The notes under the pieces are model-generated. The model was given only the letters and a program-made list of their open reading frames with translations, searched no databases and had not been told where the DNA came from. From positions 8,111-72,110 of the forward strand of contig CAZKBH010000020.1 in NCBI GenBank assembly GCA_964550795.1: a DNA stretch of 64,000 nucleotides. The letters are read 5' to 3'. Source of the stretch: an uncultured Saprospiraceae bacterium. GTDB taxonomy: Bacteria > Bacteroidota > Bacteroidia > Chitinophagales > Saprospiraceae. The position numbers and the translations under genes are program-made. Shown here piece by piece: positions 30,334 through 32,348 of the stretch (positions within the stretch are counted from its first letter, which is position 1; every line of letters begins with the position of its first letter).

Positions 30334-30603
30334 ATGGAACCAATTACAATCACCATCGCTGGAATTAAATTTATCGGCATTGCTGCAGTAAAACTCAAAC
30401 TTTTGGTTTTTTACTGGAAAGTCAAAAGTCTAATTGCTGCTGCTGGAATTAGTGCGGAAACTTTATCTATCGCCGCAGTCGGCGCTATGTTAACTGCTGC
30501 GGTTGAGGGGAAATCTGCTGATAACATACTTAAAACCGGACTAAAAAACGGGTTGTCCGATAGCCTTTCAAGATTTATCACTTATGAAGTAATAAGAGTT
30601 TAA
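30334..30603 (+). CDS. Small hydrophobic/membrane protein (89 aa)
   Basis: Two Ala/Gly/Ile-rich hydrophobic stretches. No motif was recognised. Confidence 0.45.
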   Translation: MEPITITIAGIKFIGIAAVKLKLLVFYWKVKSLIAAAGISAETLSIAAVGAMLTAAVEGKSADNILKTGLKNGLSDSLSRFITYEVIRV

Positions 30604-30666
30604 ATGGGGCTGAAGCAATAATGTATGTAAATCAACCAAATTCATTCACCTAACAAAAACAATATC

Positions 30667-31026
30667 ATGCGAACTAAATCAGAAGCGCGGCTTAAAGCCG
30701 AGAACATCGTATCAAATTGGGTTGCAGGCGCTGCCCTTACGGGTTGGATTCCTGGAAGCACTATCTTTTTGGCAGGGGCCAACATGGTCATGATTCGGAA
30801 AGTAGCGGATACATTCGGAGTTGGCTTTTTCGATGAGGCTGCTGTTAAAGCCCATTTGGGCGGAGTGGCTGGAGCTGCCTTTGGAGGGAGTGTTGCTGGA
30901 GAAGCCTTGGTGTTAATTCCTCTTGTAGGTCCAGTACTGAAGGCAGGTGCTCTGGCAGGAACAGCCAAGTTAATTGGTACTGCCGTCATTGAATACTTCC
31001 ATGACGAAAGCCCACTCCCGGATTAG
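30667..31026 (+). CDS. Small Gly/Ala-rich membrane protein, DUF697/YcjF-like pattern
   Basis: 'GWIPGSTIFLAGANMVMIRKVADTFGV' resembles the DUF697 core, followed by the glycine-zipper-like 'GGVAGAAFGGSVAGEALVLIPLVGPVLKAGALAG'. Confidence 0.45.
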   Translation: MRTKSEARLKAENIVSNWVAGAALTGWIPGSTIFLAGANMVMIRKVADTFGVGFFDEAAVKAHLGGVAGAAFGGSVAGEALVLIPLVGPVLKAGALAGTAKLIGTAVIEYFHDESPLPD

Positions 31027-31117
31027 TCTAACAGAAGTTCATACCCGGTTGTCTATTCTTGAATAGGCAACCGGGTACATTCAACATCATTTTTTCACCC
31101 TATCATTTTTAGACATT

Positions 31118-31414
31118 ATGAGCAAGTTAGCAGATGATCTCGAACTCCACTACAATGAGGCGTACTATCGCCATGATCTTAAAGCTGGAATTAAATTAAT
31201 TGCTGAAATAGCTGGCGCTGTTTCATTAGGCAGCCTGTTATTATCCATTTTGTTTGTCTGGTTGCCTGGTATTGGTATTCCCATTACCGCAGCTGTGGCG
31301 GTAAAAGTTTTCAAAGCTGCCGCCGAAGGTTATACGAATCTGGATGCTGAAGATCGCAAAAAGGTTCGTGCTGTTGTGAGATGGACTCAAGGTGGTATCC
31401 GGTTATTGGATTAA
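31118..31414 (+). CDS. Small membrane protein (98 aa)
   Basis: Central hydrophobic hairpin 'AGAVSLGSLLLSILFVWLPGIGIPITAAVAV'. Confidence 0.45.
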   Translation: MSKLADDLELHYNEAYYRHDLKAGIKLIAEIAGAVSLGSLLLSILFVWLPGIGIPITAAVAVKVFKAAAEGYTNLDAEDRKKVRAVVRWTQGGIRLLD

Positions 31415-31438
31415 TTCATGTAAAAATTACGCAAATCA

Positions 31439-31737
31439 TGTTCACCATCACCATCCTCATTGACAATCAAAGTACTGCCGTCAATATTCACCCGAATCAT
31501 ACGGCTCGGCAAATCCTGGACTACTTGCAGCAAAACCGTCTGATTTCGCGGTTTCAAGCCAACGTTCATCTCTTTTTTAACGGAGGCTTATTGCCTCTCA
31601 ACCAGCCTGTATCGCACTTCGGCATAGGGCCGAATGCAGTACTGAATGTTGTTTCAAACAATGGTCCCGGCTTTGGCGGTGGCGGCAAAGAAACCCTTTT
31701 AGTTGCCTTGCTAAAGGCATTCGCTAAACTGAAATAG
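31439..31737 (+). CDS. Ubiquitin-like (beta-grasp) small protein with Gly-rich linker and short C-terminal amphipathic helix
   Basis: Starting at ATG 31439, 'FTITILIDNQSTAVNIHPNHTARQILDYL...VHLFFNGGLLPLNQPVSHFGIGPNAVLNVV' follows the ubiquitin beta1-beta2-alpha1...'LIFAGKQL..G.TL.DY.I...STLHLV' pattern. It is followed by 'GPGFGGGG' and 'KETLLVALLKAFAKLK'. Confidence 0.45.
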
Positions 31738-31739
31738 CC

Positions 31740-32348
31740 ATGAACGCATTAATTGAATTCTTTCAACCAGCTTGGAACGGCTGGGGACAATCGGTCGTTT
31801 TTCTAGGCGGTGCCGTGGTCGTCTGGCTGCTGGGAAGGGCACAATCCATTGGGGAAATCCGTAAGCTCCAGGCAGAATTGGTTTCGTTGCGCGTCAACCA
31901 GTTTGAGAAGATTATCACCTTGGACGAGAAGCTACGTAGCGTGACAGAACGGGTATACGAACAATTGTACGCACTGCTCCATGCCACTCAAAACGCGGAT
32001 GCAGAAGGAGCAAAAACTGCCCGGGAAGCGACCCAAAAAATCTTTTTGCTGGAGTATATCGGGGCTTATTTTCACTACACCAGTGTTGGTCGCTGGGTAT
32101 TCCCGGAAGTCCGGTACGAATTGGTGGATGATGAGATCATACCCTTTCTAAAAACTTCGGCAATGCTGCTCGAAGCGCTCAACCAAGCTACGGTACTTTC
32201 ATTGACCCAGCAGCAAGTCTTAGTAATGAGCGACATAGATTTCAACTTCGCGCTCCGTTTTGCCAGAAAACACACGCGGTTTTGGGAGTTTGAACGTCGG
32301 AAAAGTTTAGTCGAGCTTGAAAAAAGACTGCTGAAACAGGCAGCATGA
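31740..32348 (+). CDS. Hypothetical N-terminally anchored helical protein (202 aa)
   Basis: TM-like 'GQSVVFLGGAVVVWLLG'. The start is 3 nt after the Ubl stop. No motif was recognised. Confidence 0.5.
   Translation: MNALIEFFQPAWNGWGQSVVFLGGAVVVWLLGRAQSIGEIRKLQAELVSLRVNQFEKIITLDEKLRSVTERVYEQLYALLHATQNADAEGAKTAREATQKIFLLEYIGAYFHYTSVGRWVFPEVRYELVDDEIIPFLKTSAMLLEALNQATVLSLTQQQVLVMSDIDFNFALRFARKHTRFWEFERRKSLVELEKRLLKQAA

Follow-up and report, generated by a model that had tools for sequence, protein, structure and literature searches.

Five small genes, here called P1 to P5, lie on one strand between the third and fourth of four TPR-CHAT genes (CHAT-3 and CHAT-4) in a 64,000-nucleotide (nt) stretch of DNA, hereafter the window, from an uncultured Saprospiraceae bacterium (contig CAZKBH010000020.1, positions 8,111 to 72,110). 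We found that two of them form a pair that recurs in related genomes: P4, predicted to be a ubiquitin-like protein (Ubl), and P5, a membrane-anchored helical protein that belongs to a new family without any database model and is P4's invariant partner. Between lineages, the remaining small membrane proteins of the cassette are interchangeable, and the most frequent of them, P2, is likely a divergent relative of the DUF697/YcjF family. We tentatively read the cassette as encoding an autonomous inner-membrane scaffold complex with a role in biological conflict or membrane stress.

Results

The five genes

All five genes were predicted by independent gene callers in three assemblies of the same organism (Table 1). 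For P2 to P5, other metagenome-assembled genomes contain orthologues that are 48-81% identical, with pairwise Nei-Gojobori ratios of nonsynonymous to synonymous substitution rates (dN/dS) of 0.06-0.22, dS being at, near or beyond saturation. These four are genuine genes under strong purifying selection, and their products are small membrane or beta-grasp proteins with no enzymatic domain. None of the 31 loci that we fetched (labelled L004, L010 and so on) encodes a homologue of P1, which also lacks profile similarity to the other accessory proteins; it is an open reading frame (ORF) that may be a gene. A Gly+Ala content of 22-31% and long hydrophobic stretches mark P1, P2 and P3, while P4 has no such stretch and P5 has one (residues 14-38). 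When the five proteins were scanned against Pfam, NCBIfam and PADLOC, nothing scored above threshold, and P4 had weak ubiquitin-family matches; in PADLOC-DB 2.0, P1, P2, P4 and P5 had no match and P3 had a chance-level match to LeoBC (E 0.023).

The initial annotation, made from the letters of the DNA, had described five same-strand ORFs of these lengths without an enzymatic domain, three of them Gly/Ala-rich and hydrophobic, one a beta-grasp protein and the last with one N-terminal transmembrane segment before a helical domain, and had placed the Ubl gene almost in contact with its successor. All of this was borne out, here and by the models described below. It had also proposed conservation and selection as a check on the ORFs; both were found for P2 to P5, with P1 as the exception.

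The P4 start was set at 31438, and not at 31381, where a mechanical ORF list begins a 118-aa (amino acid) version, because the orthologues all open with MFTI or MYTI. Between the P4 stop codon (TAG, 31735-31737) and the P5 ATG lie 2 nt, a gap that relatives either keep or replace by a 4-nt overlap.

The ubiquitin-like protein P4

In the AlphaFold 2 model of P4 (pLDDT 77), strands at residues 2-8 and 11-17, a helix at 23-32, a strand at 43-47, a short helix at 58-61 and a last strand at 68-73 follow one another in the canonical beta-grasp order. The predicted domain (residues 1-73) is followed by a Gly-rich hinge, GPGFGGGGKE, disordered over residues 76-86, and by a basic amphipathic C-terminal helix (83-97). 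A Foldseek search of the PDB with this model returned 453 matches at E<=1e-3, the best being human ubiquitin (TM score 0.85, root-mean-square deviation 1.9 Å over 75 residues). The sequences point to the same superfamily: a P4 family profile with distant members included matched the PDB sequences of the DSK2 Ubl domain (E 1.2e-6), ISG15 (3e-6) and di-ubiquitin (about 1e-5), as well as a nine-repeat polyubiquitin (E 6e-26), and a single-sequence Pfam scan gave Rad60-SLD (E 1.3e-3) and ubiquitin (0.044), both below threshold. Predicted fold and sequence profile together place P4 in the ubiquitin-like beta-grasp superfamily.

A word-indexed search of 5.8 billion proteins returned nine P4 clusters, all from Saprospiraceae-type genomes. 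P4 has no signal peptide and no free C-terminal Gly-Gly. Its Gly run sits at the place where ubiquitin ends and is followed by 16 more residues; the Gly-Gly itself is variable in relatives (GFGGSGR, GFSGAGK and GFGEGGK), and an amphipathic helix always follows, which is conserved and co-varies with the clade of P5. Searches of the window and of the related loci turned up no E1 (ThiF/UBA), E2 or JAB domain. P4 is most likely not conjugated, a scaffold being the likelier role.

The membrane-anchored protein P5

The AlphaFold 2 model of P5, built from a 61-sequence alignment, is all-helical and very confident (pLDDT 95.6, pTM 0.81). A transmembrane helix (residues 14-38) runs on into a helix that reaches residue 84, and helices at 88-120, 125-147, 150-156, 165-177 and 184-201 follow. 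The compact helical domain carries the motif ELV(D/E)DEIIPFL...LN. Family-wide, only W29, F102, P135/L137 and N148 are near-invariant, and the family has no conserved residue pattern suggestive of catalysis. Because basic residues trail the transmembrane segment in all family members, the large domain should face the cytoplasm by the positive-inside rule, which would make P5 a single-pass protein with a cytoplasmic helical domain.

The word-indexed search returned 14 P5 clusters, all from Saprospiraceae-type genomes, and little was gained when it was repeated with the 61-sequence alignment (16 matches), whereas a profile search of 1.84 billion representatives recovered 70 clusters (50% identity) of full-length relatives. 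Neither by sequence nor by fold did P5 have a significant match in the PDB, BFVD, Pfam or NCBIfam, and it had none in PADLOC. A scan of a genome collection gave Saprospiraceae loci only, plus one false positive, and three already known loci were among the matches listed by a metagenome scan.

The best structural matches of P5 in the PDB, all short of significance, were ESCRT-III proteins. The semi-open form of Sulfolobus islandicus CdvB came first (E 0.067, probability 0.99, TM score 0.36-0.42), followed by the CdvB2 filament, IST1-CHMP1B and Ist1; the top matches ranged from E 0.067 to 1.3 and from TM score 0.28 to 0.42, with none at E 1e-3. Membership of P5 in the ESCRT-III/PspA group was rejected at the sequence level. 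Even at E<=10, the P5 family profile matched no PDB chain of ESCRT-III, PspA or Vipp1, none of 61 family members matched Snf7 or PspA_IM30 in Pfam, and hhalign with the 61-sequence profile gave probabilities of 0.2% for Escherichia coli PspA and 2.5% for human CHMP3, both reference sequences having been entered by hand. A Uma2-family endonuclease from an Anaerolineae metagenome-assembled genome (L017:1853-2425), the false positive of the genome-collection scan, shares the string WVFPEARYEL with P5, at 27% identity over 104 residues; this was judged to be chance. P5 lacks the aligned catalytic Asp and has no Pfam Uma2 match.

Constant pair and exchangeable neighbors

Gene order was inspected in 14 distinct contexts (Table 2). 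The Ubl-P5 pair is present in 12 of them, and the two genes are adjacent, with the 2-nt gap or the 4-nt overlap, in each of the ten Saprospiraceae-like lineages examined, even where P5 identity falls to 35-40%. In L023 the protein upstream of P5 is a clear P4 homologue (hhalign 94%). In the more distant pairs, at 23-26% P5 identity, the product of the upstream gene aligns as a beta-grasp protein with an F-x-G-x-G hinge and a C-terminal W/L helix.

The initial annotation had asked whether the five genes travel together; in other genomes they do, in varying sets. The Ubl-P5 pair is constant and P2 is frequent, a P2 or DUF697-like protein being the commonest third partner (five lineages). P3 is found in one other lineage and P1 nowhere else. 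There is no fixed five-gene unit, and the same slot is filled elsewhere by a pair of 70-aa and 141/142-aa proteins or by a zinc-ribbon-transmembrane protein.

Table 2 Gene order around P5 in the 14 contexts inspected. Primes mark second copies; TM70, TM141 and TM142 are accessory membrane proteins of 70, 141 and 142 aa; ZnR-TM, zinc-ribbon-transmembrane protein.
Locus	Gene order
Window	P1-P2-P3-Ubl-P5
L010	P2-P3-Ubl-P5
L018	P2-Ubl-P5-P2'-P5'
L020	P2-TM70-TM142-Ubl-P5
L004, L007, L015	TM70-TM141/142-Ubl-P5
L016	ZnR-TM, signal-peptide protein, Ubl-P5
L023	soluble 156-aa protein, Ubl-P5, ZnR-TM
L025	DUF697-like, Ubl-P5, ZnR-TM
L029	Ubl fused to a transmembrane helix, P5; on the opposite strand, 1.2 kb away, Pfam-positive DUF697 gene
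L031	MMR_HSR1/AIG1-type GTPase, Ubl-like, P5, four small proteins, AAA ATPase, TPR-TIR
L030, L024	small helical protein, P5, in DNA resembling mobile or defence islands

One exchange can be followed at the level of DNA. L010:1037-1938 and L016:9699-10600 are 95-100% identical over a stretch that begins near codon 52 of the Ubl gene, spans P5 and continues into the downstream flank, whereas the N-terminal half of the Ubl is 53% identical and the upstream genes are unrelated (P2 and P3 in L010, a zinc-ribbon-transmembrane protein and a signal-peptide protein in L016). A similar step separates L010 from L015, with P5 at 89% and the Ubl at 59-70% identity. As the sharp identity breakpoint lies inside the Ubl gene, the accessory genes have been exchanged by recombination, P5 and the Ubl tail staying together. 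In L018, a second P2-P5 pair without a Ubl gene stands right after the first P2-Ubl-P5 set (L018:10949-11948); its P5 is 59% identical to that of the window, and the pair may be a duplicated, diverging module.

The zinc-ribbon-transmembrane proteins form a family of about 80 aa with an N-terminal CxxC...CxxC zinc ribbon, one transmembrane helix and an acidic tail, LLP(D/E)EV (L016:8995-9243, L023:8683-8916, L025:3236-3484). They stand beside the Ubl-P5 pair, upstream in one locus and downstream in two, and are absent from the window.

Three distant homologues have other surroundings. L031 (138-6990) resembles a conflict system, in which a GTPase of 422 aa, the Ubl-like/P5 pair, four small proteins, an AAA ATPase of 446 aa and a TPR-TIR protein of 475 aa follow one another; three of the small proteins share a terminal motif (...SLIIFK, KPLLILK and KPILIIK). 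The P5 homologue of L030 lies in an integrative element with ArdC, RadC, methylase, HD-CE and ORC/CDC6-like genes, and that of L024 lies near a resolvase and nSTAND3.

P2 and the other small membrane proteins

P2 has a basic N-terminal helix, a core of the form WIPGSTIFLAG..M.MIR.VAD.FG and a glycine-zipper hairpin (residues 65-108). Its orthologues in L010, L018 (two copies) and L020 are 65-73% identical to it, with dN/dS of 0.06-0.12. Of the DUF697/YcjF-like core and glycine zipper that had been claimed for this protein, the zipper (G65xxxG69xxxG73 and G74xxxG78) stands, with G73, G74 and G78 invariant in five orthologues and G69 not. The kinship to DUF697 is plausible. A five-sequence P2 profile, shallow at an effective sequence number (Neff) of 1.5, aligned end to end with the Pfam-positive DUF697 protein of L029 (hhalign probability 76%, E 2.3e-5, 108 co-linear columns), although BLASTP covered the N-terminal 57 residues only (E 6e-4) and P2 has no direct Pfam match. 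The 156-aa DUF697-like protein of L025 has a weak Pfam DUF697 match of its own (13 bits, E 0.084, 118 of 162 profile positions). The soluble 156-aa protein of L023 was also considered as DUF697-like and was ruled out. From these comparisons, P2 is likely a divergent DUF697-like protein.

The DUF697 domain is sometimes fused to a GTPase of the MMR_HSR1/AIG1-type class, and YcjF has the NTPase YcjX as its partner. The window's cassette encodes no P-loop NTPase, neither YcjX nor a fused or adjacent GTPase, and the window has no YcjX-like NTPase gene. The distant Ubl-P5 pair of L031 does adjoin such a GTPase, in a locus without a DUF697-like gene. P2 differs further from the known family in being a bare domain of about 119 aa that falls below the Pfam threshold. 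To our knowledge, DUF697 proteins with a ubiquitin-fold partner have not been reported, and the mentions of DUF697 returned by a literature search are all incidental.

P3 is hydrophobic over residues 23-69, with a PGIGIP turn. Its orthologues are confined to one lineage (L010/L011/L012/L014), at 70% identity and dN/dS of 0.09. Neither P1 nor P3 showed a relationship to the 141/142-aa accessory family.

Transcription signals and genomic neighborhood

Predicted hairpins bracket the cassette on both sides (Table 1), which suggests that it is a separate transcription unit; the CHAT-4 start that bounds it on the right was taken from gene calls. A further inverted repeat in the P2-P3 spacer, not flagged by the terminator scan, may be an internal terminator, an attenuator or an RNA-processing hairpin that splits P1-P2 from P3-P4-P5. 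The Bacteroidota -7 motif TAnnTTTG is absent upstream of the cassette and present upstream of CHAT-3 and CHAT-4, its overall count being no higher than expected by chance. Matches to sigma-70-type promoters are uninformative for this phylum, and a search of the whole window against Rfam found no RNA family.

The window comes from the chromosome of a Saprospiraceae-type member of the Bacteroidota: it encodes type IX secretion system (T9SS) sorting domains, its relatives are all named Saprospiraceae, and downstream it carries a ribosomal-protein operon, SecY and RpoA. In Saprospiraceae-like genomes, even at 35-40% P5 identity (L023, L025), the region around the cassette is always the same and rich in proteases, with TPR-CHAT paralogues, S8, C1 or astacin proteases and a pair of extracytoplasmic function (ECF) sigma and TPR genes. 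A signal peptide or lipobox is present on all of the window's four TPR-CHAT proteins and its S8 and C1 proteases, which together form an exported CHAT-protease cluster. With PADLOC, the CHAT proteins gave TPR matches only.

Farther upstream, the window opens (1-4318) with the end of a Wadjet system and a KaiC-family gene, followed by a large histidine kinase gene; a transposase gene and an overlapping 154-aa ORF stand just before the first CHAT gene. An HMG-CoA synthase gene lies about 6.5 kb downstream of the cassette, and an HMG-CoA reductase gene is found beside the DUF697 gene of L029 (L029:10599-12143). This mevalonate-gene neighborhood may be an ancestral remnant or a coincidence.

Table 1 Coordinates of the cassette, of its predicted transcription signals and of neighboring genes in the window.
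Feature	Position	Strand	Description
P1	30334-30603	+	89 aa; Gly/Ala-rich hydrophobic ORF, hydrophobic residues 1-57; orphan, candidate gene
P2	30667-31026	+	119 aa; membrane protein, likely divergent DUF697/YcjF-like
P3	31118-31414	+	98 aa; two-helix hairpin membrane protein, lineage-variable accessory
P4	31438-31737	+	99 aa; predicted ubiquitin-fold protein (Ubl)
P5	31740-32348	+	202 aa; single transmembrane helix and helical domain; new family
Terminator-like hairpin and T-rich run	30172..30214	+	just past the stop of CHAT-3; left edge of cassette
17-bp inverted repeat	31042..31077	+	94% complementary, 2 nt between arms; P2-P3 spacer; T6 about 15 nt downstream
16-bp inverted repeat	32406..32455	+	flanked by A- and T-runs, resembling a bidirectional terminator; between P5 stop and CHAT-4 ATG (32487); right edge
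JetC-like	1-1530		SbcC/RAD50 Walker B; Wadjet
JetD	1527-2654		Wadjet
KaiC-family	2867-4318		double ATPase
Histidine kinase	4969-8280		large PAS/GAF hybrid
Transposase	9668-10570		PD-(D/E)XK family (PF12784)
CHAT-1	11685-14780		TPR-CHAT; N-terminal signal peptide ending ...GQ
S8 protease	15028-19266		T9SS-sorted
CHAT-2	21584-24937		TPR-CHAT; signal peptide as CHAT-1
C1 protease	25068-26702		lipoprotein
CHAT-3	26809-30150		TPR-CHAT; signal peptide as CHAT-1
CHAT-4	32487-35600		TPR-CHAT; signal peptide as CHAT-1
TPR	35625-36584		downstream; divergent pair with ECF-sigma gene
ECF-sigma	36581-37189		downstream; divergent pair with TPR gene
HMG-CoA synthase	38853-40229		downstream of cassette

Discussion

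Our tentative reading is that the cassette encodes an autonomous inner-membrane scaffold complex. P4 and P5 would be its invariant, translationally coupled core, with P4 in the cytoplasm and P5 held in the membrane by its transmembrane helix. The basic C-terminal helix of P4 would dock non-covalently on P5 or on the membrane surface, so that P4 would act as a scaffold or adaptor. P2 and the lineage-variable hairpins (here P3 and possibly P1) would form the intramembrane part, and the complex would perturb or sense the cytoplasmic membrane in biological conflict or membrane stress. A conflict role is suggested by the turnover of the accessory genes, by the GTPase/AAA/TIR and mobile-element contexts of the distant homologues and by the Wadjet and KaiC-like genes with which the window opens. 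A role in membrane stress or remodeling is suggested by the linkage of DUF697 with psp genes in Proteobacteria and by the weak ESCRT-III fold matches of P5.

Non-conjugated ubiquitin-like proteins have been described on other bacterial membrane machines. The YukD/EccD ubiquitin-like domains of type VII secretion (PMC1779556) and the ubiquitin-like domain of TssN in the type VI secretion system of Bacteroidota (T6SS-iii) (PMC10781749) stand beside or are fused to membrane proteins, and they function, or have been proposed to function, as cytoplasmic scaffolds of a membrane complex. P4 resembles them as a beta-grasp protein, most likely non-conjugated, beside a membrane protein, and the L029 Ubl even carries a transmembrane helix fused to its own C-terminus. 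However, the cassette has no FtsK-like ATPase, WXG100 substrate or baseplate/sheath gene, and the partner P5 has one transmembrane helix, not 11-12, and a new helical domain. Beyond the fold, no sequence relationship to these domains was found, the P4 profile being nearer to ubiquitin, DSK2 and ISG15.

Several observations weigh against an autonomous scaffold complex. The 14 contexts inspected come from about 70 P5 clusters. In L025, L029 and L031, the Ubl was assigned by position and by an alignment that can be read by hand, with hhalign probabilities below 1% for the first two and of 35% for the third, and the most distant homologues, in L024 and L030, have a small helical protein upstream of P5 that is not a Ubl. 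The neighbors of the pair in L029 are housekeeping genes. P2 and its L018 orthologue have no Pfam match even at E 5-10 (the gathering threshold of PF05128 is 27.7 bits). P4 and P5 were modelled as monomers, and we infer the binding of P4, P5 and P2 to one another. A defence role in particular is not favored by the PADLOC defence models, none of which matched P2, P4 or P5, nor by tblastn of P5 and one distant homologue against phage and plasmid collections or a scan of viral contigs, all of which were empty.

The position of the cassette led the initial annotation to suggest that the small proteins could serve the TPR-CHAT system as effectors, substrates or receptors; they could, for instance, be gasdermin-like pores released or activated by CHAT cleavage or receptors that signal to the exported proteases. 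We consider this doubtful. The adjacency itself stands, as the cassette lies between or beside TPR-CHAT genes in every Saprospiraceae-like locus with enough flank, including L023 and L025, its position relative to the last CHAT gene and the ECF-sigma/TPR pair, both downstream of it, is syntenic, and a glycine zipper in P2 would suit such a role. However, the catalytic domains of the CHAT, S8 and C1 proteins would be outside the cytoplasm, whereas P4 lacks an export signal and most of P5 is predicted to lie in the cytoplasm. On either side, a terminator-like hairpin stands between the cassette and the CHAT gene, the upstream neighbor in L020 is an S8 protease and not a CHAT gene, and the distant pairs of L029 and L031 have no CHAT gene nearby. 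CHAT paralogues are also very numerous in these genomes, and because a single bacterial family supplies all the CHAT-linked loci, inherited synteny accounts for the adjacency no less well than function. The link is probably not mechanistic. Gasdermin systems of Runella reportedly have the gene of a membrane-active protein beside TPR-CHAT protease genes in Bacteroidota, and the cassette is similar to bacterial gasdermin operons with CHAT or caspase-like proteases in that a gene of membrane-active type adjoins TPR-CHAT genes. It differs in that no cassette protein has a gasdermin-sized, beta-rich fold and in that the CHAT proteins here carry signal peptides.

A second explanation would make the cassette a membrane-stress or remodeling device, with P5 as an anchored ESCRT-III/PspA-like polymer, P2 as a YcjF-type partner and the Ubl as a recruiter, comparable with the archaeal and eukaryotic ubiquitin-ESCRT systems. 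P5 is all-helical, as are ESCRT-III, PspA and Vipp1, has a long helical hairpin at its N-terminus followed by shorter helices, would act at the membrane and finds its best Foldseek matches among ESCRT-III proteins, CdvB above all. Yet no TM score reaches 0.5 and no match reaches E 1e-3, all-helical models often yield spurious matches, the profile and hhalign comparisons found no kinship, and P5 has a true transmembrane anchor, unlike those proteins. Of 81 psp operon structures, 32 are extended by ycjX/ycjF, the prototype of DUF697 (PMC3041696), which would fit a YcjF-type P2. On balance, we find this explanation unlikely.

The cassette could also be of the toxin/immunity or bacteriocin-like kind: glycine-zipper peptides would kill competitors or the cell itself, and the Ubl-P5 pair would serve as immunity or export adaptor. 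The small proteins may act as pores, toxins or effectors; as an account of the whole cassette, a toxin set is quite unlikely. Against the Gly/Ala-rich hairpins, and the rapid turnover of accessory genes in a fixed slot with a recombinational swap between near-identical genomes, as is typical of polymorphic toxin/immunity loci, stand the lack of a signal or leader peptide of known bacteriocin type on the small proteins, of a transporter or peptidase-C39 ABC exporter in the cassette and of Pfam, NCBIfam or PADLOC matches to toxin/immunity families, and the resemblance of P2 to an ordinary cellular membrane family.

That P4 is the precursor of a conjugatable modifier, cut by a protease at GGGG so that the C-terminal helix is lost and the Gly ligated to targets, is very improbable, because no E1, E2 or JAB/deubiquitinase gene accompanies it in the window or in any related locus and its Gly-Gly is not conserved (GSG, GAG and EGG variants), and although its Gly run superposes on the end of ubiquitin, a tail of 16 residues follows as in ubiquitin and Ubl precursors and protease genes are close by, those proteases are exported and the helix that would be discarded is itself conserved. 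The locus resembles the Bil/Bub and the 6E/CBASS-associated E1-E2-JAB systems in having a ubiquitin-fold protein with conflict-system neighbors (here Wadjet and the KaiC-like ATPase upstream); it differs from them in these missing enzymes, in the lack of a free C-terminal Gly and in the conserved helix after the Gly hinge.

In returning to the autonomous scaffold complex, the question is what it would mean. We found no paper describing this gene set in a literature search. The theme of a ubiquitin-fold scaffold with membrane partners is known; the P5 family and the rare Ubl-P5 module are new, and P5 stands out as a family that combines the lack of a database model with a very confident AlphaFold prediction and a ubiquitin-fold protein as its constant partner. 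For annotation, our results advise caution before the cassette is assigned to the CHAT protease system. Should P4 and P5 assemble into a membrane complex, it would be the third independent case of a non-covalent ubiquitin-fold scaffold on a bacterial membrane machine, after EccD/YukD and TssN, and it would give a first functional handle on the widespread DUF697/YcjF family. Both the swapping of accessory genes and the GTPase/AAA/TIR surroundings of one distant homologue hint at a role in a conflict system. A bolder and unlikely extension is that a ubiquitin-fold adaptor controls a membrane-anchored, possibly ESCRT-III-like polymerizing or pore-forming protein, and that the two belong to an unrecognized bacterial membrane machinery with a DUF697-type partner and lineage-specific triggers: exported CHAT proteins and ECF sigma factors in Saprospiraceae, a GTPase with AAA and TIR proteins, or the defence islands of mobile elements. 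If true, this machinery would be a bacterial, conjugation-independent counterpart of ubiquitin-directed membrane remodeling or cell suicide.

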